IMG/VR virus record: IMGVR_UViG_3300032247_000689
Coordinates: 1 to 64,000 of that record
Source: a virus
Taxonomy: Duplodnaviria; Caudoviricetes
DNA length: 64,000 nucleotides
Direction: 5' to 3' (one strand)
Of this stretch, positions 38,984 through 50,152 are shown in pieces. Numbering within the stretch: the stretch's first letter is position 1; each line of letters begins with the position of its first letter. A program made the translations under genes and the position numbers. The notes beneath the pieces were generated by a model, which saw only the letters and a program-made list of their open reading frames with translations, made no database searches and was not told where the DNA came from.

Positions 38984-39101
38984 TTAGTATTAAACGCAGG
39001 TACGGCTATCTCTCTCTTCCTAAAACCAATAAAAGAAAGTGAAAGGTCTTGACCGCCCTTAGCATGGAAAGGGTGTGCTTTAACGCCCAATACTATAGGG
39101 A

Positions 39102-39257
39102 TTAAATCTCTTCTTCGTCGTCCTCTTCTTCATCATCACAGAGGCAATCATCTCCACACTCTCCGCAATCGAAGCATTGGTCATCTTCCCACTCTTCAAG
39201 GTCATCTTCATCTTCAAGTTCAATCTCTTCAATATCAGGGGTTACTTCATCAGCCAC
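39102..39257 (-). CDS. Very acidic small protein with Cys cluster
   Basis: GTG start; D/E-rich; CFDCGECGDDCLC. Confidence 0.55.
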   Translation of the reverse strand: MADEVTPDIEEIELEDEDDLEEWEDDQCFDCGECGDDCLCDDEEEDDEEEI

Positions 39258-39261
39258 TCTC

Positions 39262-39549
39262 TTATGCCTCTCTCTTGAAGGATACTGTACCTGACCAAGA
39301 CATAGGCTTGCCTTTAACATCAAGGTCTGCGCCAGCAATCATCTTGCAACTCTTTCTAGTTGTCATGGCTTGGACTCTCTCTTTAACCCAACGCTTGCCA
39401 GCACTAGCGTTAGACCACGCTGTTTTTTCTACAACATAGCCTTCGTCAATTCCTTCATCTCTTACGCTAACGCTTGCTAACCATGCGCCACCCTTTTCAG
39501 GGTTCTTTTTTAGTGTTGCCTCGAATATAGCAGTTACTTTTCTAGCCAT
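39262..39549 (-). CDS. Hypothetical protein
   Basis: SD AAGGAG. Confidence 0.65.
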   Translation of the reverse strand: MARKVTAIFEATLKKNPEKGGAWLASVSVRDEGIDEGYVVEKTAWSNASAGKRWVKERVQAMTTRKSCKMIAGADLDVKGKPMSWSGTVSFKREA

Positions 39550-39961
39550 TGTTATTCTCCTTTGTGACCCAATAGTACGGCATATCAGGCAATACGTTTG
39601 GGAACTTGTCTGAGTAGTATTCAGGGTTCTTTCTTATTAAGTTGCTTTGGTGAGATAGGTGAAGCCGTCTCTCTCCTAACCATGACGGTAGGATTACTCT
39701 ACCATCATAGTTAAATCTCTCTAGCATATTATCCGTGTAGCCACGCGCGCTCCACTCTATGCACATCTCTCTCCCATACTCTTTAAGCGCGCTCTCATAG
39801 CCCGCCCACATGAGTACGGCAGGGTGGTTACGCCAGCCCTTTGTCTCTCCACGCAGGGCTCTTAATACTTGCCACGCTTCGACTCTCTGTTTACCTAGTC
39901 TCTTATAGTCCAGCACTTGCGCCGTCTCTCTGAAACTAGGATAGGGAAGGAAGGTCTGCAC
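39542..39961 (-). CDS. Pyrimidine-dimer DNA glycosylase-like protein (MSMEG_6728 family)
   Basis: MQTFLPY...LD.KRLGKQRVE...HPAV.MW...SHQSNL.RK. Confidence 0.85.
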   Translation of the reverse strand: MQTFLPYPSFRETAQVLDYKRLGKQRVEAWQVLRALRGETKGWRNHPAVLMWAGYESALKEYGREMCIEWSARGYTDNMLERFNYDGRVILPSWLGERRLHLSHQSNLIRKNPEYYSDKFPNVLPDMPYYWVTKENNNG

Positions 39962-40116
39962 GTTACGCCTCTAGGTATTGCACTATGACCCCAAGCGTTG
40001 TGTGTATAGCGCAATCACAATCGCTCTCTTTATGGTCGTTGAAAGAATTAAAGTGTTCTAAATTATCCTCATAGATTACGTCAATAAGTTCGTTTATTGT
40101 ATATAAATCACTCATC

Positions 40117-40557
40117 TTATCTCTCTCTCATACTGTTGAAGGCAATATCAACTGCGATATTAAACTTTATATCCATTTCCTCTGTCCACTCGATAGAGTT
40201 CATCTCTCCCCAGTTGATAAGGTTATGCTCATCTATGAAGTTATGAATCTCCAGCGCGGTATCCTCATTAACGGATAACATCTTACCTATCCACATGGTA
40301 AAGATATTCGTTTGGTGCGGTTTGCGTGTAGGCACTTCATAATCGTTGCAGATAGCGTCCACTAGGGCTACCCCTGCTATGTCTCTCTTGCTCCCCACAT
40401 AGGTAAGGCGCAATCCTGAATCGGATAGGGCTTGAAGTACAGTTATATATTCTATATCTACATTTATATCTTTGTTAAGTTTGATTAGTTCTTCTAGCCT
40501 TATACCTAGTACGCAAGCGTAATCCTTCTGCGCAGTAACCTTATCGTTGTCGTTCAT
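40117..40557 (-). CDS. Hypothetical protein
   Basis: SD AAGGAG. Confidence 0.6.
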   Translation of the reverse strand: MNDNDKVTAQKDYACVLGIRLEELIKLNKDINVDIEYITVLQALSDSGLRLTYVGSKRDIAGVALVDAICNDYEVPTRKPHQTNIFTMWIGKMLSVNEDTALEIHNFIDEHNLINWGEMNSIEWTEEMDIKFNIAVDIAFNSMRER

Positions 40558-40599
40558 ACTTCTCCTTCGATATTGGTCGAGTTACACTCGGCGCACTCA

Positions 40600-40725
40600 T
40601 TACATCTCATCTTTCTTATGCTTCCGTTTCCTAGTGTATCGCTTCTTATTCTTTATGGGGGTAGCGGAATTACTACGGCGTAACTCTAATAAACGGCGTA
40701 GTTCCTCTGCTGACTTCTTAAACAT
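40600..40725 (-). CDS. Small basic peptide (41 aa, missing from ORF track)
   Basis: MFKKSAEELRRLLELRRSNSATPIKNKKRYTRKRKHKKDEM; SD AAGGAAAG; TTGACT-N17-CACACT upstream. Confidence 0.6.
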   Translation of the reverse strand: MFKKSAEELRRLLELRRSNSATPIKNKKRYTRKRKHKKDEM

Positions 40726-41173
40726 CTTTCCTTATCCTTTGTTAGATAACCCTAGCGCGTACTACGTCCTTAGTGTGTCGAACGGTACGTTGCAAGTCAA
40801 TTCGCGTAATCGCGCTAGGGTTATTCTGTAACTCAATAGGTACTGCGCTTTCGTGTCTATCATTTACTCGATACTATGCTGGCGAAACTATACTGCTGGT
40901 TACGGCTATCATAGTTTTCACCGTAATCCGTCGCGTTGTTATGGAGTAAGACCCTGTTTCATAGGCTAGACCAATCCTATTAAGTAACTTTGCACCCCGT
41001 TAGGTACTGCGACACCATAGTTCACTCGAATCTATTACATAAACTCATTGGAACACTTTTGCTAATTGCCTATTGCCTTATTAAAGATAGCCCATGCCTA
41101 TCTCATTGGGGCTCACGTTCGCCATGTGGGGCTCTTGACCAATCCTAACGGGGAATCCTCTATGTAGTTTTAT

Positions 41174-41788
41174 TTACCAACTCGCTTGGTAGTGGTAATC
41201 GTACTCTCCCTCAATATCACTCGCAAGTATTGAGTTAATCGTCTCTGCTGTCTCTGCAAGTTCACGATAGTAATACTCGTCCTTATCGGTACTACCGAAA
41301 AAGAATCCTGATACGGGTGGGATAGGGTCATCGCCTTCATCAAGGATAACCCTACTCGAACGCGCTGTCTCTTTGGCAAACGCTTCCATAATAGATTTGA
41401 CCGTACTGTTCTCTGAACCCGAATCTATTGTATAAACTTCTGAATCTTGAGTAGGTACTGCCTTATGCCTATCCTGTAAGCCTACGACACACGCGTTACG
41501 CAACGCGATAAGGTCGTCTCTGCTCATTGAGATACGCTGGCACTCATCTACGCCGTTGGCGCAGTTGCGAACTATCCAACCGTGAATAGCGTTAGCCTTA
41601 CGCCAATACGCTACGCACTTAGTAACTCTAACGCTACCGTATTCTGCGGTCGGTATCGAGTTTAGACCCGACGCTTCGATAACATTATCGTATTCAAGAT
41701 TATCTTTGCGAGTCATTTCGCCATTAACGCTCTCGAAGTCATACGCGCTTATGTGCTTCTCTGCATATAGGTACATATCTAATCCCAT
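41174..41788 (-). CDS. Conserved phage hypothetical protein
   Basis: MGLDMY...YWRKANAIHGW...GFFFGS...YQASW. Confidence 0.75.
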   Translation of the reverse strand: MGLDMYLYAEKHISAYDFESVNGEMTRKDNLEYDNVIEASGLNSIPTAEYGSVRVTKCVAYWRKANAIHGWIVRNCANGVDECQRISMSRDDLIALRNACVVGLQDRHKAVPTQDSEVYTIDSGSENSTVKSIMEAFAKETARSSRVILDEGDDPIPPVSGFFFGSTDKDEYYYRELAETAETINSILASDIEGEYDYHYQASW

Positions 41789-41915
41789 TTGTGTTTTCCT
41801 TTATTGTCTAATTGTTCGACGTCGCACCATACGAAGCCGTCCTGATGTCTAGTTATCTGTCCTAATATGTCGAACCATTGTTCGTCCACTTCGGCAGTAA
41901 TTCTGAACGTGTCGG

Positions 41916-42110
41916 TCATAGGATTACCCTTCTGTTGTCCTCTAGGTAGAACATATAATCGAGCGCGGTCGTTATTAAATTGTTTAAGTTCGGTATATCT
42001 AACGCGGTATCCGCGCTATTTATTCCGTCCTGTAATCGAAGTAATACGTCCTTCATAAGTTTCGCGTAATCTACGGGAGACTCGTCGAAGGTAATCGTAT
42101 CCTTGTCCAT
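41916..42110 (-). CDS. Hypothetical protein
   Basis: SD AAGGAG. Confidence 0.55.
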   Translation of the reverse strand: MDKDTITFDESPVDYAKLMKDVLLRLQDGINSADTALDIPNLNNLITTALDYMFYLEDNRRVIL

Positions 42111-42222
42111 TAGAACTCCTTACTGTTGTAGGTATATCCGCTAACCTTATTTGAGTTATGGATAATAGCAAGCGTTACGGCTACCGTGTATAGGGCTAGT
42201 ACGCCTAGCCCTATCGCGGTAA

Positions 42223-44091
42223 TCATGCGACCCTGTTTGTGTTGAGCGTGGATTTGACTAGGCTCTGCGCCACTTCAAGAACGTCCTTTGGCTCGGCAAC
42301 CGCGTGAAAGATACTCGCGCCATGATTTATACGCTTGATAGTGCTTCGCGCAGACTCGCCATAATCATCTCCGAGACGGCTCTGCTCTAATAATTCTTGG
42401 TAATACTTATATCCACCTAAGAATACTACGCAAGTGATGAAGCCCTTATCGTTTAAGGATTTAATAATCGCGTTGCAATCATCGTCCATATCCCACTCGC
42501 CGTCGGTAACTATGAAGGCTAACTTTATCGAACGCTTGCTCATAGTGAGAATACGCTCTGCTTCAATTAAGCCACGAATAGGATTAGTGCTACCCGAAGC
42601 GTGGAGATAACGATAGGTACTAGGCTTAGCCTTGTCCTTCTTGTCATAGATAAGGCTACTCTCATGGTTGAAAGATATAGTAGTCACGTTGCCGTTGATA
42701 CCTTCGATACCGCGCTTGATAATCCACGCGTTCTCCATGACCGAGCGCATGAGCCCACCCATACTGCTACTGTGGTCGGTTAAGATTACCGCTTCAATAT
42801 CTGTATTAGGGTTACCCGTATCCCATTGGTCGAACATGGTACGGATAGAGTTCACGTTAGGGCTCATGGTACGGGTGATATTTAACTTACCGCGCGCGTT
42901 AAACTTATCCCACTTAGGGTCGCCGTTGCGAACGATACGCTCTAATTCTTGACCGAAGCGACGGGCAATCGAGCGCGCTGACTCTGATACGCTCATCTCT
43001 GAACATGATACCTGCTTAACCGCACCGCGTACTTCGTCGCTATTAAGGATAGCCTTACGCGTTTCATTGACTTCGCGCTTGATAGTTTCGTTTTCCTTGA
43101 TAGCCTTCATGCGGTTATTGAGTAACTTAGAGATAGCCTTATCTTTATCGTCGAACTCTACGTCCGCGCCTTCGTAAGTGCCGTCTCCACCCACGCCGAC
43201 ATTAGGATTATTACCGATAGTTTCGATAGGGTTATCCTTGTTCATGCGAGCGTTGCGTTCTTGTAAGCGTTCTTGCTCTGCGTTCTTTGCAGGACGACCC
43301 TTTACAGGGAACTCGCAACCGCCATGTGGGGGTAGGTGAATCTCACCCTGTTGCTCATCTAAGCCGACAATCTCTGCCATGCGAGCGATAAGCACCTTAG
43401 CCTTATCGAAGTCGGCAGGGAATACCAATACGCGATAGGCGTGGATAAGTGTGTGTAGTTCTTGCGCTAAGGCTACGCCATGAGTAGCGATAAACTCATC
43501 TGCAACCGCTTGGCGTACTTCGATAGGTAGATAGGTGCGACCCGTAATAATATGGAAGTAATTGCCAATCGTATCTTGATTATCGAGTAGGTACTGCGTG
43601 GTCGCGCTCTCTAGGAATAGTCGAGTCACGGGATATTTAGCCACTAGTAACGCTTCCGCGCGCGCTTCCTCTAGGATATAGGTTGCGCGACGGTACTTAT
43701 TATCCTTGACATATTGGATAAGGTTACTTCCTGCGCGTGGCGAGAATAGAACGTGAGCGACTTCGTGGTAGTTGAGCCCGTGAAGGTGCATGATATTATC
43801 TTGAGATACATCTGCAATAAGGTTATCGTTAAATATAATCTCGCGACCGTTGCTCATAGCATTAGTTTCCATAGACGGGTCATTAACTACCGATACGGTT
43901 AGTTCAGAGTCGCCCGTGATAATTCTATCGGCGCGCTGATATACCGCGCTGATAGCGTTAAGGCGGTTAGCCCTATCCTGATAGTCGGCGAGAATATTCT
44001 CTCTAGTGCGACCGAACTCGTCGGTCGCACCCCACCGTAAGTCTCCGCTTTCTAGGGCAGAGAGTTCATCGTTGTATCTAGCCCTAGCCAC
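42223..44091 (-). CDS. vWA-domain protein with N-terminal HExxH motif (CobT-like)
   Basis: YHEVAH; MIDAS DHSSSM, GSTNP, VTDGE. Confidence 0.82.
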   Translation of the reverse strand: MARARYNDELSALESGDLRWGATDEFGRTRENILADYQDRANRLNAISAVYQRADRIITGDSELTVSVVNDPSMETNAMSNGREIIFNDNLIADVSQDNIMHLHGLNYHEVAHVLFSPRAGSNLIQYVKDNKYRRATYILEEARAEALLVAKYPVTRLFLESATTQYLLDNQDTIGNYFHIITGRTYLPIEVRQAVADEFIATHGVALAQELHTLIHAYRVLVFPADFDKAKVLIARMAEIVGLDEQQGEIHLPPHGGCEFPVKGRPAKNAEQERLQERNARMNKDNPIETIGNNPNVGVGGDGTYEGADVEFDDKDKAISKLLNNRMKAIKENETIKREVNETRKAILNSDEVRGAVKQVSCSEMSVSESARSIARRFGQELERIVRNGDPKWDKFNARGKLNITRTMSPNVNSIRTMFDQWDTGNPNTDIEAVILTDHSSSMGGLMRSVMENAWIIKRGIEGINGNVTTISFNHESSLIYDKKDKAKPSTYRYLHASGSTNPIRGLIEAERILTMSKRSIKLAFIVTDGEWDMDDDCNAIIKSLNDKGFITCVVFLGGYKYYQELLEQSRLGDDYGESARSTIKRINHGASIFHAVAEPKDVLEVAQSLVKSTLNTNRVA

Positions 44092-44968
44092 GAAGCACCT
44101 CATTGAAGTAGTTCATATCTGCTTGGCGGTATCCCATAGACTCTAGGATATTGTCCTTATGTGTATCACACGCTAGGCGTACCCCACCGCGCTCCTCACG
44201 GTTGAAGCCATTAACGAAGGACATAATTGCGAAGTCCACGTCGAAGTTGCGAGCGTTATTTATGAAGGCAACGAGCGAACGGGTTGAGATAGGGGTAGAT
44301 AACTCCTCTTTAGCGTATTGCTCGCGAAGTTGGTCGGCTAGGATTAGAAGTGCTTTATTACCGACTACCTTGTTCTCGATAGCCCTATCGTAAGGGAACT
44401 CCAACTTAATATGGAAGCGGTCATTGAAGGCTTGGTTGAGTTCTTGTGTGCCTTTATAGCCATAGTTCATATCGGCTACGATTAGTAAGTCCTTATGCGC
44501 CTTGATTACTTCGCCACCGTTCTCCAATAGTTGAATCTCACGGCGGTAATCGAGAAGTGAGAATAGGACGGTAGAGACACGGGTAGGGAGAAAGTTCACC
44601 TCATTGAGAAGTAATACGCCACCATGTCGGACGATTTGGGTAACTGCACCGTCCTGCCAACGATAACCCTGTCCGTCTGCGCGTGGAATCCATGCGCCGA
44701 ATAGTTGAGAAGGGTCGATAGCATTAGAGTTCGATACATTGAAGTAACGCATACCCTTAGCCGAAGCATAACTCTGAACGGCGATAGTCTTACCGCTACC
44801 TGCTTCACCTTCGATAAGGATATTAGTGCCGTCGGCAAGCGCGCGGTCAAAGATTTCCCACTCGGTTTTACGTCCGAAGTGGCGGTTGATATACCCGTGA
44901 GATAGAGATATATCGGGTACTGTAATCATGGAGTAGGTCATATCCTGCTCATTGGTCGTTGTATTCAT
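44084..44968 (-). CDS. MoxR/CobS-like AAA+ ATPase
   Basis: GEAGSGKT, LLNEVN, N.GY.G...LNQAFNDRF; SD GGAAGG supports ATG at 44968. Confidence 0.88.
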   Translation of the reverse strand: MNTTTNEQDMTYSMITVPDISLSHGYINRHFGRKTEWEIFDRALADGTNILIEGEAGSGKTIAVQSYASAKGMRYFNVSNSNAIDPSQLFGAWIPRADGQGYRWQDGAVTQIVRHGGVLLLNEVNFLPTRVSTVLFSLLDYRREIQLLENGGEVIKAHKDLLIVADMNYGYKGTQELNQAFNDRFHIKLEFPYDRAIENKVVGNKALLILADQLREQYAKEELSTPISTRSLVAFINNARNFDVDFAIMSFVNGFNREERGGVRLACDTHKDNILESMGYRQADMNYFNEVLRG

Positions 44969-45020
44969 TGTGCCTTCCTGTGCGCCATTGGCGCGGTTAT
45001 GGGTTTGCCTTACATAGAGA

Positions 45021-45049
45021 AAGATAGGGGAAGGGATAGGTATAGGCAA
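45021..45049 (-). promoter_or_regulatory. SigA-type promoter for AAA/vWA operon
   Basis: TTGCCT-N17-TATCTT on minus strand. Confidence 0.6.
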
Positions 45050-45311
45050 CTTCCTACTACGCGTGGAGTATAACGATTTGATAACGATTTCCTGCTCTCT
45101 CTGCCTCTCTTATCCGATAACTCTCCCCAACCGATAGCCCTAGACGTGGCTGTATCGCCATGCTCTCTCCACTACCATAGGTAGTAGCCGAAAGTCAATA
45201 GCGGAAAGGTGTGTTCTCTCTCACTCTCTAAGGTTAGCGGGCTCTCTCGCCTCTCTCGCGCAAAATTGTTATGAAATCGTTATAAATCTCTCGGCGTGTC
45301 GATTTGACAGA

Positions 45312-45427
45312 GTTTGTGTTGGTTAATAGCTAGCTATTAACCAATTAACAATAAGCCTAAGCTTATTGTTAACGGGGTTTAAGGGGTGTCCCCTGATAGG
45401 GTTATGGGTGGGTGGGTCAACACAAAC
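45312..45427. repeat. Branched palindrome element A (divergent copy)
   Basis: GTTTGTGTTG...CAACACAAAC enclosing a 26-bp perfect palindrome (45319-45344) and a 12-bp hairpin (45345-45372). Confidence 0.7.
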
Positions 45428-45440
45428 ATTTCGCGCCCAA

Positions 45441-45456
45441 TGTTTCACGTGAAACG
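45441..45456. promoter_or_regulatory. parS-like site
   Basis: TGTTTCACGTGAAACG: 15/16 match to TGTTTCACGTGAAACA, perfect 14-bp core, intergenic. Confidence 0.75.
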
Positions 45457-45545
45457 GTGATAGCCCTAGCGCGCTAGGCACTAGGGCTATCGTTACCCTG
45501 TTTCCGAAAGGTTAGAAACTCAACAGGGCGCTAGGGGTAGACGAC

Positions 45546-46115
45546 CTACTCCCCCTTATCCCCGCGAATTACTCCGCGAAGGACATCTAATATGTTAGAG
45601 GGGAAATCGGTTGGTACTGCCCCTGATTCAGTAAGGAGTTCAAGTGGGTCGTATTCACCTGAAAGTATCTTGTATGGGTCTAACTTAGAGAACTTATCCA
45701 CCTTGCAGTTACTACGAAGGAAGGCTGTCGCTAGGTCAGGTGCTTCCATCTCGAATTGGGAGATAAACCTACCCAATACGCCCATAGTAGAGAATAACTC
45801 CGCCGCATGACCGCAAGCCCATAGGATATTGCAAGCGATAGCGAGGGCGTACATATCGTCCTCGTTAGGCTTATCGTTCTGTATTACATTGGTAATCGCA
45901 GAGTTGGCTAGGGTTACGCTCATTTTTTGACGGAACTCGAAGTCACCCTTGAGTGTTTGGCAAATAATTGCCGAATAGAGTTCAGGTTCGTGAAGGTCAC
46001 GGGTAAGGTTAGGGAACAACGGGTCAATGTTGTCCCCTTCCTCAATATCCTGCGCGTCAGGCAAGAGGTTAATAGTGGCGATAATCTCGTTAAAACGATA
46101 CTTGAGGTCGCTCAT
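45546..46115 (-). CDS. Hypothetical protein
   Basis: Coupled ORF. Confidence 0.65.
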   Translation of the reverse strand: MSDLKYRFNEIIATINLLPDAQDIEEGDNIDPLFPNLTRDLHEPELYSAIICQTLKGDFEFRQKMSVTLANSAITNVIQNDKPNEDDMYALAIACNILWACGHAAELFSTMGVLGRFISQFEMEAPDLATAFLRSNCKVDKFSKLDPYKILSGEYDPLELLTESGAVPTDFPSNILDVLRGVIRGDKGE

Positions 46116-46603
46116 TGCTCGCTCACATCTGTATCGAAGTCAGAGTCATCTAACTCCCAAGAGTCGATGTCAATATCGTAACTACCTGACTCGCCCTTGT
46201 AGGAGATTGTCACGCTAATACTAGCCTCGATGTCAGCGTCCTCTAGGACTATTTCACCTGCGCGTTCCTCGTTCTCGGCTTCTACGTCCTCGAACTCGGC
46301 AACTGTGTACCCCTTGTAATTAACGGCAACTGTGAACTTGCGCATTAGGGTTTCAATGTTATCCCAACCTAAGCGGTCAGCGATAGTGTTATAGGTCTCG
46401 ATGGCTTCATCGTTGGTAAGTGTGCCGTTGTCGGCTAGGTCGCGGAGTGCGCCAAGAACGCCCTCTGCGTGTGTGGCGTTAAGGTTGTCCTTAGCGCGCT
46501 GGATACGAAGGTCTACATCTGCGTAGGCTTCGTTTACTGCCTTAGTTGTCTGTGCTACCACATCATCTGCGGTAAAGAACAACTGTGTCTGTTCGTATGA
46601 CAT
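46112..46603 (-). CDS. Acidic hypothetical protein
   Basis: SD AGGAAG; own promoter. Confidence 0.7.
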   Translation of the reverse strand: MSYEQTQLFFTADDVVAQTTKAVNEAYADVDLRIQRAKDNLNATHAEGVLGALRDLADNGTLTNDEAIETYNTIADRLGWDNIETLMRKFTVAVNYKGYTVAEFEDVEAENEERAGEIVLEDADIEASISVTISYKGESGSYDIDIDSWELDDSDFDTDVSEQ

Positions 46604-46647
46604 TTGTACTGCTTCCTGTGGGTGGTCGTTATCCCACTACCTGATTT

Positions 46648-46736
46648 AACCATACTCTCCCCCTCTCTATTCCAACTCTTTTATAACGATTTGATAACGA
46701 AAAGATAACATTTCGTTATTCTCAGCCAACTCTCAG
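46648..46736 (-). promoter_or_regulatory. Cassette promoter: GGAAT-N18-GTT, ATAAC array, TCTCAG-N5-TCTCAG
   Basis: Promoter 46648-46673; ATAAC at 46683/46694/46705, GTTAT 46715; TCTCAG 46720/46731. Confidence 0.75.
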
Positions 46737-46746
46737 GAATCTCCCA

Positions 46747-46833
46747 TGTTTGTGTTGGTTTATTAGCAAAATATGACGTGTCATATTTTGCAGACATAGC
46801 TGCTATGTCTGCGCTAATAAACCAACACAAACA
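46747..46833. repeat. T-shaped three-way-junction palindrome B
   Basis: 21-bp stem plus 10-bp and 11-bp arms, all Watson-Crick. Confidence 0.95.
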
Positions 46834-46834
46834 A

Positions 46835-46864
46835 TAAGCCTAGCGGGGGAAGCCGCTAGGCTTA
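46835..46864 (-). terminator. Intrinsic terminator
   Basis: TAAGCCTAGCGG-N6-CCGCTAGGCTTA; T-rich tail on minus strand. Confidence 0.75.
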
Positions 46865-46872
46865 CTGCTGAC

Positions 46873-47250
46873 TTATGAAAAGGATACGAACCCTGGCGCG
46901 TTGGTATTCCATATTTGGCTATCGTATTTGAGGAAGTAATCTACTTGCTCATCGGATAATCCTAGTGTGTAGCCCTCATCATCTGCGCCACCTGTGATAA
47001 TGACATCGCCCATGATTACATCTGACATATCGTACATATCAACCCATAGCGCGGTTGCGGTTGGGTTTTGAGTTAGCCCGCTAAACTTTCCGTTCTCGTT
47101 GAGCCACATATCAGGTTGGCTAGGCTTATCGTGTAGAGAGACACACTCAATCATGCCACCTACGGCTTCAGATAGAACTTCGTAACAGGTATCGTTGGTG
47201 AACTCAACCACAGACTTCTCACCTGTGGTCGTAATCTTAATTGCTTTCAT
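46873..47250 (-). CDS. DUF3846-like protein
   Basis: VGGMIECV...MWLNENGK....N..AT...GDVIITGG.D.EG. Confidence 0.75.
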   Translation of the reverse strand: MKAIKITTTGEKSVVEFTNDTCYEVLSEAVGGMIECVSLHDKPSQPDMWLNENGKFSGLTQNPTATALWVDMYDMSDVIMGDVIITGGADDEGYTLGLSDEQVDYFLKYDSQIWNTNAPGFVSFS

Positions 47251-47398
47251 CGGGTTTCCTTTCGGTCGGGGTGTGGGGTGGATAGCCCTAGACTTGGCTC
47301 TAGGGCTATCCTGCAACCTGCTGACCCGTAGCGGTTGCGAGATAGGCAATTACGGCTTGTACTGGCTCGGATAGCCTATCCCAAACTTAATGCGGGTC

Positions 47399-47704
47399 TT
47401 ACTTCTTTACTCCAAGAGTTTTGCGGAGATTCTTAATGCGCTCATAGAGAGTGCCTTCGGATACTCCTAGTGATTCAGCCATAAGGCTAATAGGTAGCCC
47501 TGCCTTGTGTGCTTGCCATGTAATGGCGTCGCGGTTGATGATGGCTTCCTTAAGAGCCACATCTGCTTCAACTAGGCTTTGGCAGAACTGTGCTTTCTGC
47601 TCTAGGCTTAGTTTTGACTTGCGGTACTTGCGCGTAGGTGCTTTACCTGTCGCGCGCGCTGTACGGATACGCTCCTTCAGCGCGTCTATGTCCTTGTGTG
47701 ACAT
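47399..47704 (-). CDS. HTH DNA-binding protein
   Basis: GLPISLMAESLGVSEGTLYERI. Confidence 0.75.
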   Translation of the reverse strand: MSHKDIDALKERIRTARATGKAPTRKYRKSKLSLEQKAQFCQSLVEADVALKEAIINRDAITWQAHKAGLPISLMAESLGVSEGTLYERIKNLRKTLGVKK

Positions 47705-47745
47705 ATATTCTCTTTCCGTGAGGGGTCGTTCTCACTATCTAATAG

Positions 47746-47817
47746 AACCACACCTCTGCGGATTCTCTTTCACTTTTTTGATAACGATTCGGTAACAATC
47801 TCATAACGAAATGTTAT
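47746..47817 (-). promoter_or_regulatory. Cassette promoter (variant GAAAG-N18-GTT) with ATAAC array
   Basis: ATAAC 47781, GTAAC 47792, ATAAC 47803, GTTAT 47813. Confidence 0.65.
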
Positions 47818-47820
47818 AAA

Positions 47821-47911
47821 TGTTTGTGTTGGGGTTTATATGCAAAAAATAACGTGTTATTTTTTGCAGACATGGCTTCCATGTCTGCGCATATAAACCC
47901 CAACACAAACA
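47821..47911. repeat. T-shaped three-way-junction palindrome C
   Basis: 23-bp stem plus two 10-bp arms, all Watson-Crick. Confidence 0.95.
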
Positions 47912-47914
47912 AGA

Positions 47915-47940
47915 CAGCCCCAGCCTTTCGGCTGGGGCTG
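47915..47940 (-). terminator. Intrinsic terminator
   Basis: CAGCCCCAGCC-TTTC-GGCTGGGGCTG (GAAA loop on minus strand). Confidence 0.8.
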
Positions 47941-47955
47941 CTTTATAACGTTTCG

Positions 47956-48903
47956 TTATAGTGCCATTACGGCTTCTAGAACCCGCGCCTTTTCTTGCTG
48001 GATTCCAGTCTCGAATCCACTAGCGGCAACTGCCATGCCCTCTGTCATAGGGTTATCGCCATTGCGGTACCAGTCGATTCTTTCGGTGAGCGCGTTAAGC
48101 GCGCCCCACTTAGTGCCAGTAATATTGGCGTTAGTTGGAGATGAGACATAGAGCCCACGAGTGAGGTCGAATTTTGCTTCCCACTTAGTAAGTTGAGCCT
48201 TCTTATCGTCCTCGGGCTTTGGATAGATAGTCTCGAATACCTTGTCGAATTGCGCGGTTGTGATTGGTGTCTGGTAAAGACCCTGTGCGATTGCATCGAA
48301 TTCATCTAAGTAAGCATGTGTGAGCGCAAGAGCCTCGCGCGCTTCTGTGATTCTGCCCTGTGTGCCTTGAGTGTGGCGAACAGACCATGATTGCTTAGCG
48401 CGCTTGAAGGCTAGGCTTAGCGTATTTTGGCAGATAACGCGAACAGGCGTTACACATGCGCGGATTGAACTAGAGCCGTCATGTGATGATGAAACTAAGA
48501 GATATGTCTTAGTTGTGTCATTTGCGCCAGTTGGGTCGATTGTAAACTCGCGGTCGATTGTGAGCGCACCGAAGATTGTGCGACCCTTGCGGAAGAAACC
48601 TGCGGATTCCCATTGGGCTCCGCCGTCAAGAAGATTGTCGCCGAAAGCGAGTAAATCCTCATTTTGGTATACATCGTATTTTTCGCCTACGATTGCGAGA
48701 GATTCCACGCCGTTAGGGGTATCGCGTAGCACCATATATTCATTAGAGAGAGGCTTGACGCCAGTTGGGTAATTTACAGGCTCCTTGCGGACATTCCAGT
48801 TGGCAAGACCTGCGCGGTTGAGCATTTCGCTCGTTGTGACATGCTCATTAGGGCGGAAAATCTCCCGCGCTAATGTGTGCCACGTTGGTGTGCGTAGTGA
48901 CAT
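47956..48903 (-). CDS. DUF932 / TIGR03299-like phage-plasmid protein
   Basis: WH.L, AGL.W.V, YLL..SHDGS...TPVRVICQNTL, RHT, GT.WGALNA. Confidence 0.85.
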   Translation of the reverse strand: MSLRTPTWHTLAREIFRPNEHVTTSEMLNRAGLANWNVRKEPVNYPTGVKPLSNEYMVLRDTPNGVESLAIVGEKYDVYQNEDLLAFGDNLLDGGAQWESAGFFRKGRTIFGALTIDREFTIDPTGANDTTKTYLLVSSSHDGSSSIRACVTPVRVICQNTLSLAFKRAKQSWSVRHTQGTQGRITEAREALALTHAYLDEFDAIAQGLYQTPITTAQFDKVFETIYPKPEDDKKAQLTKWEAKFDLTRGLYVSSPTNANITGTKWGALNALTERIDWYRNGDNPMTEGMAVAASGFETGIQQEKARVLEAVMAL

Positions 48904-48949
48904 TTTTAACCTTTCGATATTGCTAGCCCTATGGCTAGGCACCCAATAT

Positions 48950-49060
48950 AACCTAATACGCGGTAGTGCTATTCCACTCTCACATAACGATTAGATAACG
49001 ATTCCATAACATTTCGTTATACAGGTATCTCTCAGGAAACTCTCAGGATTCTCCTCTCAG
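48950..49060 (-). promoter_or_regulatory. Cassette promoter: GGAAT-N18-GTT, ATAAC array, TCTCAG boxes
   Basis: Promoter 48950-48975; ATAAC 48984/48995/49006, GTTAT 49016; TCTCAG 49030/49041/49055. Confidence 0.75.
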
Positions 49061-49067
49061 CTGAAAA

Positions 49068-49158
49068 TGTTTGTGTTGGGCTGTATATGAAAAATATGCA
49101 TGGCATATTTTTGCAAAGACCGCTTCGCGACTTTGCCATATACAGCCCAACACAAACA
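49068..49158. repeat. T-shaped three-way-junction palindrome D
   Basis: 22-bp stem, 10-bp arm, second arm with one small internal mismatch. Confidence 0.92.
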
Positions 49159-49160
49159 AG

Positions 49161-49192
49161 TTATCCACAGGCGGGGAAGTGCCTGTGGATAA
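49161..49192. promoter_or_regulatory. Inverted pair of DnaA boxes within a hairpin
   Basis: TTATCCACA (49161) and TGTGGATAA (49184). Confidence 0.6.
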
Positions 49193-49236
49193 GTTAGCCG
49201 CCGCGAAAAAGGTTAGGGAAAACGCGGCGGCTAAGG

Positions 49237-49404
49237 CTAGGTTGTGCTATTCCAGCACTCGTCACAAGTAAAGCCATCTGGATATGCGTCTGGAAGTATT
49301 GGCGTTAGTACAGACCCATCAGGGAGCTTCTTTGCGCACTTCATACAGATTAGTGAGCCTTCCGCGTCCTCAACGCCGATAAGCCTAGTGAACGGAGTAA
49401 TCAC
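49237..49404 (-). CDS. Small zinc-finger protein (55 aa)
   Basis: CMKC...CDEC; coupled to upstream gene. Confidence 0.55.
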   Translation of the reverse strand: MITPFTRLIGVEDAEGSLICMKCAKKLPDGSVLTPILPDAYPDGFTCDECWNSTT

Positions 49405-49589
49405 GCTGGCACCCATGTAGTCCAGCGCGTTTCAAGGTTATCCTGCAAGAGGCGTAACCTTACGCTACCTGTGCGATTGCGTACCTTCTCGACTACAAAG
49501 CCTACTTCTTTAGATTGCTCGGTTTCGTATAGGTCGCCAATCTCGGGCTCGAAATTGAGTGGCAAGATGTGGTCGGTGAGTATTGCCAT
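49401..49589 (-). CDS. Hypothetical protein
   Basis: SD GAAAGGA. Confidence 0.6.
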   Translation of the reverse strand: MAILTDHILPLNFEPEIGDLYETEQSKEVGFVVEKVRNRTGSVRLRLLQDNLETRWTTWVPA

Positions 49590-49742
49590 TTATTTATTCC
49601 TTTCGTAATGGAAGTCACAGATTGTGGCGTCCGCGTCTATTGAGTAGTGACAATTAGTTTTTACTGTGTGGTGAGTGTAATGAAAGTGGGCGAGCCCTGC
49701 AAGGGTGGCTATTGCCACCCCTGCAAGAATTACGCGCTTCAT
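49590..49742 (-). CDS. Small exported/membrane peptide (50 aa)
   Basis: MKRVILAGVAIATLAGLA...; coupled. Confidence 0.55.
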   Translation of the reverse strand: MKRVILAGVAIATLAGLAHFHYTHHTVKTNCHYSIDADATICDFHYERNK

Positions 49743-49897
49743 GGTTTCAATCCAAATTGCTCAACGACAGTCTTAGTACATTCCTCAATTCCCGAAATCT
49801 TGCCTTCTGTGTAGGCAATCTCGATAATGTGCGCCACTAGATTAGTGGTAGTGGTATCTAGGCTCGCTTCTGCGAGTAGGGCTAGGGCTTGCTTCAT
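49739..49897 (-). CDS. Small hypothetical protein (52 aa), first gene of leftward region
   Basis: SD GAAAGG downstream of cassette promoter. Confidence 0.6.
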   Translation of the reverse strand: MKQALALLAEASLDTTTTNLVAHIIEIAYTEGKISGIEECTKTVVEQFGLKP

Positions 49898-49943
49898 GTT
49901 CGTAACCTTTCGTTATGAAGGCGTTGTTGCCTTCAACTACTAT

Positions 49944-50062
49944 AACCGAGAGCGCGCTAGTGCTATTCCCACTATATATAACGAAATGATAACGATTAGA
50001 TAACAATATGTTATACAGCCTGCTCTCAGGTACCCCCCAGGGTTAACTCAGACAATTCTCAG
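49944..50062 (-). promoter_or_regulatory. Cassette promoter: GGAAT-N18-GTT, ATAAC array, four TCTCAG-like repeats
   Basis: Promoter 49944-49969; ATAAC 49978/49989/50000, GTTAT 50010; TCTCAG/CCCCAG/ACTCAG/TCTCAG at 50024/50035/50046/50057. Confidence 0.75.
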
Positions 50063-50123: not shown

Positions 50124-50152
50124 TTGACATGGTGAGGCAGTAGCGCTATGGT
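50124..50152 (+). promoter_or_regulatory. SigA promoter (leaderless)
   Basis: TTGACA-N17-TATGGT-N6-ATG. Confidence 0.75.

Follow-up and report, generated by a model that had tools for sequence, protein, structure and literature searches.

This analysis suggests, at a probability that we put at about 0.4, that the three intergenic palindromes B, C and D in the window (the whole 64,000-nucleotide stretch of phage DNA analysed) are the T-shaped sub-lineage of a family of phage-specific perfect inverted repeats fused to predicted intrinsic terminators, which would bound early gene cassettes and serve as DNA-level boundary or insulator elements. The parts of this reading differ in strength. Judged from the sequence, action at the DNA level is probable, and a role as insulator between tandem transcription units is a tentative proposal that is rather doubtful when taken by itself.

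Concerning the anatomy of the elements, B (46747–46833) is an 87-bp perfect T-shaped palindrome with a 21-bp stem and two arms (77.5 bits with model R1), C (47821–47911) is a 91-bp perfect T-shaped palindrome with a 23-bp stem (82.8 bits with model R1), and D (49068–49158) is a 91-bp T-shaped palindrome with a 22-bp stem; none is assigned to a strand. These coordinates and sequences agree with the initial annotation, as do the stems of 21–23 bp with two arms, the fully paired three-way junctions and the absence of G-T pairs. The small mismatch that it reported in D appears as a small internal loop in the second arm, and the folds show loops of 3–4 nt instead of the 1–3 nt claimed. As single-stranded DNA, B, C and D fold with −36.6, −41.0 and −39.4 kcal/mol (z-scores −13.0, −13.2 and −12.9), no shuffled sequence folded as well (0/200), and the opposite strand folds equally well. 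The 12-mer TGTTTGTGTTGG has seven exact copies in the window, six of which are the ends of B, C and D. All elements of the window are confined to 45.3–49.2 kb, where the three described initially are real and a degenerate fourth copy, element A (45311–45428, no strand assigned), had been missed. A lies one cassette beyond the others and represents a second architecture, with the same ends carrying one mismatch each, an outer stem of 10 bp, two perfect AT-rich hairpins and a G-run of four GGG tracts at 45399–45416. A-like copies were found in five loci of relatives (L014, L139, L146, L135 and L088).

The source genome belongs to an uncultured freshwater phage, a dsDNA myovirus of 95.8 kb with a family A DNA polymerase closest to those of Streptomyces phages, and is not T4-like. 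The element cassettes occupy its sole leftward gene block. Each of B, C and D directly follows a predicted intrinsic terminator on the minus strand, namely the hairpin of the DUF3846 gene (46830–46869), that of the DUF932 gene (47914–47941) and a hairpin at 49161–49192 in which both stem halves are perfect DnaA boxes. In all three cases the T-tail of the predicted terminator is the first arm of the element, which bears out the placement between a terminator and the next promoter claimed previously. On the other side lie leftward promoter cassettes, all putative: after B (46648–46746, minus strand) with CTCTCAGG-type repeats, ATAACG repeats at 11-bp spacing and GGAAT-N18-GTT; after C (47705–47820, minus strand) with ATAACG repeats and a deviating promoter motif; and after D (48904–49067, minus strand) with CTCTCAGG repeats, ATAACG repeats and GGAAT-N18-GTT. 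Elements precede four of the five putative promoter cassettes in the window, and the first one, at 49.9–50.1 kb, has neither an upstream gene nor an element. No sigma-70-type promoter match was found in the leftward cassettes.

One to a few genes lie in each segment between elements. The DUF932 (TIGR03299) gene (47956–48903, minus strand) is the sole gene between D and C, and nearly all relatives likewise have elements on both sides of it. Between C and B, a DUF3846 gene (46873–47250, minus strand) shares the slot with a gene for a 101-aa HTH protein with a weak match to sigma-70 region 4 (47399–47704, minus strand); the former was not found in the loci of relatives, and the latter had no homologue in the slots of any relative. 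Two function-unassigned genes of 163 and 189 aa (clusters F1 and F2; 45546–46603, minus strand) lie between B and A. A sequence search of the DUF932 protein and of a 626-aa protein against solved structures returned nothing useful.

Pattern scans of viral and metagenome contigs identified 178 distinct elements with the same ends, whereas exact-end matches to the same pattern numbered 0 in 185,579 bacterial and archaeal genomes. Among 66 clear members, the 12 outer bp are invariant and the core measures 17–50 nt. The T shape, which the initial annotation took as the conserved feature, occurs in this phage and is otherwise confined to four or five close relatives (L006/L046, L084/L123, L135 and L140); the other members carry a single inner hairpin or an unstructured core. 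Likewise, the initial statement on conservation of the outer 12 bp and the arm bases is correct inside this genome, but the arms vary across the wider family. A strong hairpin ends at most 8 nt from one element end in 58 of 63 cases, the order of the T arms relative to gene direction is identical in every T-shaped copy, and in complete relatives the elements are restricted to one stretch of ~3.5 kb. At distant DUF932 loci (L028–L030, 31–36% identity) no comparable inverted repeats were seen, so that DUF932 does not by itself entail the element.

The family is large and apparently undescribed. Rfam returned nothing for the whole window at gathering thresholds, and with E-value thresholds gave only 23–29-bit matches to miRNA-precursor hairpins, whose cut-offs are 74–97 bits; no Rfam family thus explains B, C and D, which the initial annotation had not recognised either. 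Neither a megablast of the 8-kb region nor a blastn of D against 50,697 phage records yielded more than chance matches of 19–29 nt. Literature searches with the 12-mer and its complement found unrelated primer sequences only, and those combining DnaA boxes with phage intergenic repeats, or DUF932 with leading regions, found no description of the element.

This distribution bears on the idea that the elements are selfish or neutral DNA, either MITE- or REP-like repeats or old palindromes kept by templated correction and tolerated after terminators. They do resemble MITEs in measuring 70–100 bp, in bearing ~20-bp terminal inverted repeats and in their TGT...ACA termini, and a post-terminator site is a known safe haven. 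However, a target-site duplication is lacking in 45 of 63 elements and the other 18 share 2–3 nt only, no transposase match was found in the genome, the copies are clustered within ~3.5 kb instead of dispersed, and the prokaryote genomes scanned hold none. Furthermore, paralogous copies inside one genome are 65–84% alike, whereas D and its counterpart in a relative (L135:1542-1632) are 96% identical within a surrounding locus of 71% identity, a pattern contrary to that of a recent burst. Even in relatives with only ~50% identity of the DUF932 proteins, the elements persist at syntenic junctions. We regard a selfish or neutral origin as very unlikely.

The pairing pattern provides the main evidence for action as DNA. 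Stems are perfect over 19–26 bp, a narrow range, in 66 of 66 clear members, while the inner pairs vary; the structure-over-sequence conservation proposed initially is therefore that of a real repeat family, and pairing is retained in the homologues. The 7–14 bp beyond the outer 12 include all four Watson–Crick pairs with zero mismatch or wobble; stem positions 13–20 show the four pair types and no non-Watson–Crick pair, and no wobble pair occurs among roughly 500 variable pairs. Pairing ends abruptly, with G-T at the first unpaired position in only 4/66 and pairing resumed past a mismatch in only 4/102 short-stem matches. The 11 T-shaped copies contain a single G-T among 455 predicted pairs, and one of them (L135:3481-3572) shows a compensated change within the otherwise fixed 12-mer. 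Such strict Watson–Crick pairing suggests that the constraint acts on DNA or both strands and not on a single RNA, as the initial annotation had argued. Quasi-palindrome correction also yields Watson–Crick-only arms, a point in favour of neutral persistence, and templated correction of this kind during replication, not selection, could keep the arms perfect; if so, the lack of wobble would not exclude an RNA role.

An RNA role would mean that the 19–26-bp duplex, formed in read-through transcripts, separates the cassette mRNAs, much as RNase III sites do among the early genes of T7; it could be a target of RNase III, stabilise 3' ends or act as a back-up terminator. RNase III requires a duplex of about two helical turns, which is the size of these stems, and the orientation relative to transcription is fixed. 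The elements moreover come directly after terminators with imperfect T-tracts that may leak. Against this stand the near-complete lack of G-T pairs, the equal folding of both strands, stems without internal loops of the T7-site kind, the position in the terminator–promoter gap, and the Rfam results, which gave no family at threshold and only miRNA-precursor hairpins far below it. Neither promoter hexamers in the stems nor a U-tract after the stem occurred consistently. Action through RNA is, in our estimate, unlikely.

Based on the strict self-complementarity over 19–26 bp atop a fixed 12-bp base, the element most likely acts as folded DNA, which could be a hairpin when the DNA is single-stranded or a cruciform when it is negatively supercoiled, with the stem base probably read by a protein. 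In the boundary reading, each early cassette would be a self-contained set of promoter, gene and terminator, with the repeat marking its boundary. The first arm would provide the T-tract of the upstream terminator, and the palindrome, placed between the terminator and the next promoter, may absorb transcription-generated supercoiling, stop or mark leak-through, or both, so that the cassettes could each fire independently. Several points weigh against this proposal. Positive supercoiling before an approaching polymerase would re-absorb a cruciform, which makes it a poor physical roadblock, and extrusion from the duplex is harder for many members because they hold 17–50 unpaired or half-paired core bases. 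Other terminators of the same genome lack the element and work without it, and the fixed 12-mer argues for a sequence-specific reader, which an insulator does not need.

The fixed 12-bp base and the strict Watson–Crick arms may alternatively constitute a structure-specific signal in hairpin or cruciform form, which in this lineage would be elaborated to a perfect three-way junction and through which a candidate phage or host reader would control entry, priming, recombination or expression of a terminal-repeat early block; this is possible but improbable. Its more specific form, sites read by a host or phage protein in DNA entry, anchoring or replication priming, which would resemble T5-like injection-stop DnaA-box repeats or hairpin primosome-assembly sites, has about the same low likelihood. 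The neighbourhood of the elements is consistent with it. Of 76 long-stem elements, 41 have a perfect 9-bp DnaA box no more than 70 nt away (background 0.034 per 140 nt), usually 5–15 nt from the promoter-side end and often as an inverted pair; the terminator stem adjacent to D is built of such boxes, and a chromosomal-type parS adjoins element A as well as an element in locus L022. In T5-like phages, DnaA boxes are conserved in long inverted repeats of the first-injected DNA (bioRxiv 10.1101/866236). The block moreover shows homology to a section of a phage terminal repeat. In Streptomyces phage Bmoc, whose direct terminal repeat measures 11 kb and also strings together leftward units of a single gene, gene 2 of the repeat is a DUF932 homologue. 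By this analogy, the leftward block is probably a long terminal repeat carrying host-takeover genes. The ends of the present record share a 123-bp repeat, which looks like an assembly overlap. Logan contigs of four DNA runs were short, stopping at or near elements; they carried no information as to depth, ends or transcripts and weigh on neither side.

However, a promoter-side DnaA box is present in 0/11 T-shaped copies, which carry other repeat arrays there, and DnaA is thus not needed by the T-shaped elements. One element per gene junction suits the logic of transcription units better than that of entry or priming, and the T5 model is itself a hypothesis. GC skew showed no origin-like switch at the elements. 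If such a signal were true, it would be a new class of folded-DNA signal in dsDNA phages, alongside host-derived DnaA boxes and parS.

The cassette organisation also raises the question of recombination, in which the elements would be sites or linkers for exchanging early-gene cassettes, by homologous exchange like that at PeSLs or through a structure-specific recombinase as at attC. The gene content between elements does differ among relatives: the slot between DUF932 and F1 holds F3 or F13 in others, and the HTH and DUF3846 genes in the window. Every element has the same 12–16-bp ends in both orientations, an arm is purely G/T, a composition reportedly preferred by RecA, and the homology between the window and L135 spans exactly from the outer end of C to that of D. 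Nevertheless, ends of homology blocks were not enriched at elements (3.2% within 10 nt versus 3.7% for random positions). Family searches of the 95.8-kb genome gave no match to tyrosine recombinases (PF00589, which matched in all control genomes), serine recombinases or Y1 transposase/HUH proteins (PF01797 only), and likewise none to telomere resolvases or RNase III. In addition, the stems lack extrahelical bases, and self-complementary arms are unnecessary for homologous exchange. Exchange of cassettes as the function is accordingly quite unlikely.

Lastly, the branched shape suggested that the elements might be decoys, by which host nucleases, or defence sensors that recognise hairpins and junctions, would be baited or blocked. 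Full pairing of the three-way junctions is in keeping with this, as is their place among probable early or anti-defence genes, DUF932 and DUF3846 included. Most of the family nevertheless has no branched shape, palindromes are usually a liability for phage DNA, and nothing links the elements to any defence system; a decoy function is extremely improbable.

Phage early regions consist of small self-contained gene units, and to our knowledge the signals that keep such units independent or exchangeable are known in detail only for T4-type phages. The present family contributes an element that is widespread and apparently restricted to phages, and for which the evidence of selection on DNA self-pairing is unusually clean, with hundreds of covarying pairs and essentially no wobble. 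It further brings a direct fusion to predicted terminators, and neighbours that imitate sites of the host chromosome, namely DnaA boxes and parS. If the elements fold in vivo, cruciform or hairpin DNA would here serve naturally as a regulatory part, and synthetic constructs in actinobacteria could take the elements up directly as insulators. Cultured Streptomyces phages, through the homology of their terminal repeat, offer a route to experiments.

Compared with known systems, the AAV ITRs, to which the elements were likened initially, share the T-shaped A-B-B'-C-C'-A' geometry and similar arm sizes. The likeness does not extend further, since the present elements belong to a dsDNA phage, have no Rep-binding repeat or D region and are T-shaped only in one lineage; they are internal (46.7–49.2 kb of 95.8 kb), while ITRs end a linear single-stranded genome and carry a Rep nicking site, and no HUH/Y1 match (PF01797 only), hence no Rep gene, was found. 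The likeness to integron attC sites fared similarly. What the two share is that structure is conserved more than sequence, that the ends are conserved while the core varies in length, and that they are placed at the 3' end of gene cassettes, whereas the cassettes here carry their own putative promoters. PF00589 was unmatched in the 95.8-kb genome, so no IntI-type gene was seen; the stems, perfect in 66/66, have no extrahelical bases or unpaired central spacer, features by which strand choice is set in attC sites; and relative to the attC cores RYYYAAC/GTTRRRY the polarity is reversed, with GTT in the 5' arm and AAC in the 3' arm on either strand, and B and C misfit the degenerate words.

REP/BIME and DNA-uptake sequences are short words that form inverted repeats at gene 3' ends in many copies, doubling as terminators or abutting them, and they are chromosomal, dispersed and imperfect. 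The present elements differ in being phage-only, clustered and perfect, and REP/BIME were rejected on the lack of an exact-end match in the 185,579 prokaryote genomes and of a RAYT-type/Y1 transposase (PF01797). MITEs were set aside for want of a target-site duplication and of a transposase or recombinase match, and in view of the clustered copies and the 65–84% paralogue identity. In Frpo, a −35/−10 pair is rebuilt in the stem, and N4 hairpin promoters have a 5–7-bp stem with a 3-nt loop and use a virion RNA polymerase; the stems here hold no promoter-like hexamer pair, and no RNA-polymerase match was found among the Pfam-scanned ORFs (largest 949 aa), which led us to reject both types. The early RNase III sites of T7 are comparable in their stems of ~two helical turns between consecutive early genes, but lie within one long transcript and have internal loops, whereas the present elements come after terminators, are perfect and can fold on both strands.

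The T5-like injection-stop repeats share long inverted repeats or palindromes with perfect DnaA boxes, and a location in non-coding DNA of a leftward early block that is in, or homologous to, a long terminal repeat, here by analogy. They differ in lying in one large non-coding region, against one element per gene junction here, and in a length of 131 bp with no arm covariation described (bioRxiv 10.1101/866236); the T-shaped copies in turn are without the promoter-side DnaA box. The PeSLs of T4-type phages (PMC2839356, PMC4122927) likewise combine a repeated intergenic terminator stem-loop with the next early promoter and flank small variable early genes whose content differs among relatives. 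A terminator stem-loop and an early promoter, both predicted, do stand together in the cassettes described here. Identity with a PeSL that carries a sigma-70-type T4 early promoter was rejected, as the leftward cassettes gave no sigma-70-type match and the polymerase is of family A; the promoters here are not of the sigma-70 consensus and the phage is not T4-like. No enrichment of homology breakpoints was found either, and PeSL stems are drawn with G-T pairs (PMC2839356, PMC4122927), whereas the pairs here are strictly Watson–Crick. Above all, the present arrangement differs from that of PeSLs in its separate perfect palindrome of 70–100 bp with fixed 12-bp ends, placed between the terminator hairpin and the promoter cassette.

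The data show that the T-shaped palindromic elements B (46747-46833), C (47821-47911) and D (49068-49158) belong to a family of perfect inverted repeats that are fused to terminators, occur only in phages and bound early-gene cassettes. They lie exactly where the initial annotation had placed them, and its proposal of fully paired three-way junctions was borne out by folding of the single-stranded DNA, which gave energies of -36.6, -41.0 and -39.4 kcal/mol, respectively, and z-scores of about -13, with 0 of 200 shuffles equalling native folding; the complementary strands folded equally well. The predicted outer stems measure 21, 23 and 22 bp, and the folds contain neither unpaired junction bases nor G-T pairs, as had been claimed, although the loops, described as 1-3 nt, came out at 3-4 nt. 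One arm of D is interrupted by a small internal loop. A rival explanation of such folded structures is that they act as decoys.

The 12-mer TGTTTGTGTTGG occurs seven times without mismatch in the window; six of these sites form the two ends of B, C and D. The degenerate fourth copy, A, at 45311-45428, deviates by one base at each end. Its outer stem is only 10 bp long, and it also contains two AT-rich hairpins, both perfectly paired, as well as GGG tracts, four in a row, a G-quadruplex-type motif with loops of 4, 1 and 1 nt (45399-45416, plus strand) just inside its right end. The C-rich/G-rich run of A was found again in A-type copies of the related contigs L146, L135, L088, L089 and L109. 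Additionally, a lone half-site, the 12-mer complement with one mismatch, lies at 42234-42245 in the final codons of a 626-aa gene, where it adjoins a ATAGGGCTAG hairpin and has no partner arm. Single 12-mer copies outside the elements are few and lie within coding sequence. Terminators of this genome do not in general carry the fixed 12-mer as their tail, which suggests a sequence-specific reader.

The scan of viral contigs yielded 22 stretches with both 12-mers 50-80 nt apart, and a slightly looser pattern yielded at least 120 in metagenome contigs, whereas none of 185,579 bacterial and archaeal genomes contained the same end pattern; the viral and metagenome scans gave at least 178 distinct family sequences. 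Among the matches listed, outer-stem length was bimodal (10-13 bp, n = 102; 19-26 bp, n = 76), the short-stem class being a mixture of chance matches and real A-like copies; pairing almost never resumes beyond a mismatch in any sequence of this class. Among the long-stem matches, 66 are clear members; in these, positions 1-12 do not vary, and positions 13-20 show all four Watson-Crick pair types with zero mismatch and zero wobble. One T-shaped copy, L135:3481-3572, has a compensated change within the 12-mer itself. The core (17-50 nt) is variable: some members form two hairpins (the T shape), others a single side-stacked hairpin that leaves the tail unpaired, and others no stable structure. 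When nine T-shaped copies were used to build a covariance model, it gave T-shaped sequences 77-100 bits, in one orientation, and all others 54 bits or less; the T shape occurred, among the matches listed, only in the window, L006/L046, L084/L123, L135 and L140. The order of the arms relative to gene direction is constant in all T-shaped copies, and only one G-T was present among 455 predicted pairs of 11 such copies.

Strict Watson-Crick pairing, equal folding of the two strands and a position between terminator and promoter argue for folded DNA, or for both strands needing to fold, rather than for a single RNA, and we put the probability that the elements act at the DNA level at about 0.65. 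Templated correction of quasi-palindromes during replication would likewise yield Watson-Crick-only arms; therefore, the absence of wobble still leaves some probability to an RNA role, such as that of an RNase III target or a stabiliser in read-through transcripts.

On the minus strand, a predicted intrinsic terminator immediately precedes each element, whose own first arm is the T-rich tail of that terminator. Downstream of each element follow 11-bp-spaced repeat arrays (CTCTCAGG-type and ATAACG-type), a GGAAT-N18-GTT motif and then a gene. Five such putative promoter cassettes were identified. One of the elements A-D stands before each of the four that have an upstream gene; the first cassette, near 50.0 kb in the divergent region, lacks one. 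The rightward genes are headed by a near-consensus sigma-70 promoter (TTGACA, 17 nt, TATGGT; 50124-50152, plus strand), which faces the leftward block from the far side of the divergent control region. In relatives, a strong hairpin ends within 8 nt of one end in 58 of 63 long-stem elements. Since the element occurs only at terminator-to-promoter junctions, provides the terminator T-tract and sits where the supercoiling of two units meets, we favour, tentatively and at well short of even odds, a role as a boundary or insulator between tandem transcription units, in which extrusion of the 87-91-bp palindrome would absorb about 8-9 helical turns (91/10.5).

On the side away from the strong hairpin, a perfect DnaA box lies within 70 nt in 41 of the 76 long-stem elements (background, 0.034 per 140 nt), commonly 5-15 nt from the element and often as an inverted pair. 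These boxes bear on the rival reading that the element is a DNA signal which a protein reads during entry or priming, comparable with the proposal for the T5 DnaA-box repeats (bioRxiv 10.1101/866236); the promoter side of the T-shaped copies carries no DnaA box, other arrays being present there instead. Single or inverted-pair boxes flank elements in L007, L009, L012, L017, L019 and L020. In the window, the stem of the terminator beside D (49161-49192) consists of two perfect DnaA boxes, and A has, 13 nt away at 45441-45456, a perfect parS palindrome of the chromosomal type, GTTTCACGTGAAAC; L022 carries a 14-mer of that parS in the right flank of its element, at a distance of 6 nt. The terminal repeats of cultured relatives include ParB-like genes.

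The full viral record spans 95,815 bp; the 123-bp repeat at its ends probably reflects overlap in the assembly, not a genuine terminal repeat. Its genes are those of a myovirus with a DnaB-type helicase, a class II ribonucleotide reductase and a family A DNA polymerase, the last best matching Streptomyces phages (~39% identity). Apart from a 10.9-kb block at 39-50 kb, almost every gene is encoded on the plus strand. A-D occupy the promoter-proximal 4 kb of this block and separate DUF932, the pair formed by a 101-aa HTH protein and DUF3846, and two unknown genes. The HTH protein (47399-47704, minus strand) has a weak, below-cut-off match to an ECF sigma-70 profile (TIGR02937, E 0.002), and its gene neighbours cassettes whose promoter-like GGAAT-N18-GTT is unlike the sigma-70 consensus. 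A second family of hairpins, on ATAGCCCTAG and its complement, occurs in untranslated regions of the block (42185-42210, 45133-45164, 45460-45492 and 47281-47312) with no T-tract following, and about 600 nt (40558-41173) hold no credible ORF.

In complete relatives, the elements are grouped in a single stretch of ~3.5 kb with one or a few genes per segment between elements, and DUF932 nearly always has such a segment to itself. Gene content in the slot that separates DUF932 from the F1 gene, of unknown function, differs from phage to phage, and no relative's locus has a homologue of the window's HTH or DUF3846 genes. D and its L135 counterpart share 96% identity, against 71% for the surrounding locus. 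Paralogous elements in one genome are 65-84% alike. A rival role is that of recombination linkers, like the promoter-early stem-loop (PeSL) cassettes of T4-type phages (PMC2839356, PMC4122927), and another is that of selfish repeats. In cultured Streptomyces phages, gene 2 of an 11-kb direct terminal repeat, composed of leftward single-gene units, encodes a homologue of DUF932 (45-47% identity). As the window's leftward block (39080-50000, 10.9 kb) resembles in size and layout the 11.06-kb repeat of Streptomyces phage Bmoc (L151/L152: 1-11063 and 121823-132885), it may represent a collapsed terminal repeat. Bmoc is cultured and tractable, and the cassette-boundary motif in the intergenic gaps of its repeat (L151:1200-9100) is a different one: at least seven copies of a GGCCGGGGCGGCC mini-hairpin beside a GC-rich terminator hairpin.

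Concerning known systems, the elements lack the defining features of integron attC sites and AAV-type repeats, to which the initial annotation had likened them, and also those of REP elements and MITEs, with no target-site duplications found at 63 long-stem elements. The Rfam match that might have accounted for them was sought, and no family applies. The literature searched holds no description of this element family. The closest system in its working is PeSL, as a cassette boundary; unlike PeSL, the present elements add a new, separate part, a perfect palindrome whose ends are fixed.
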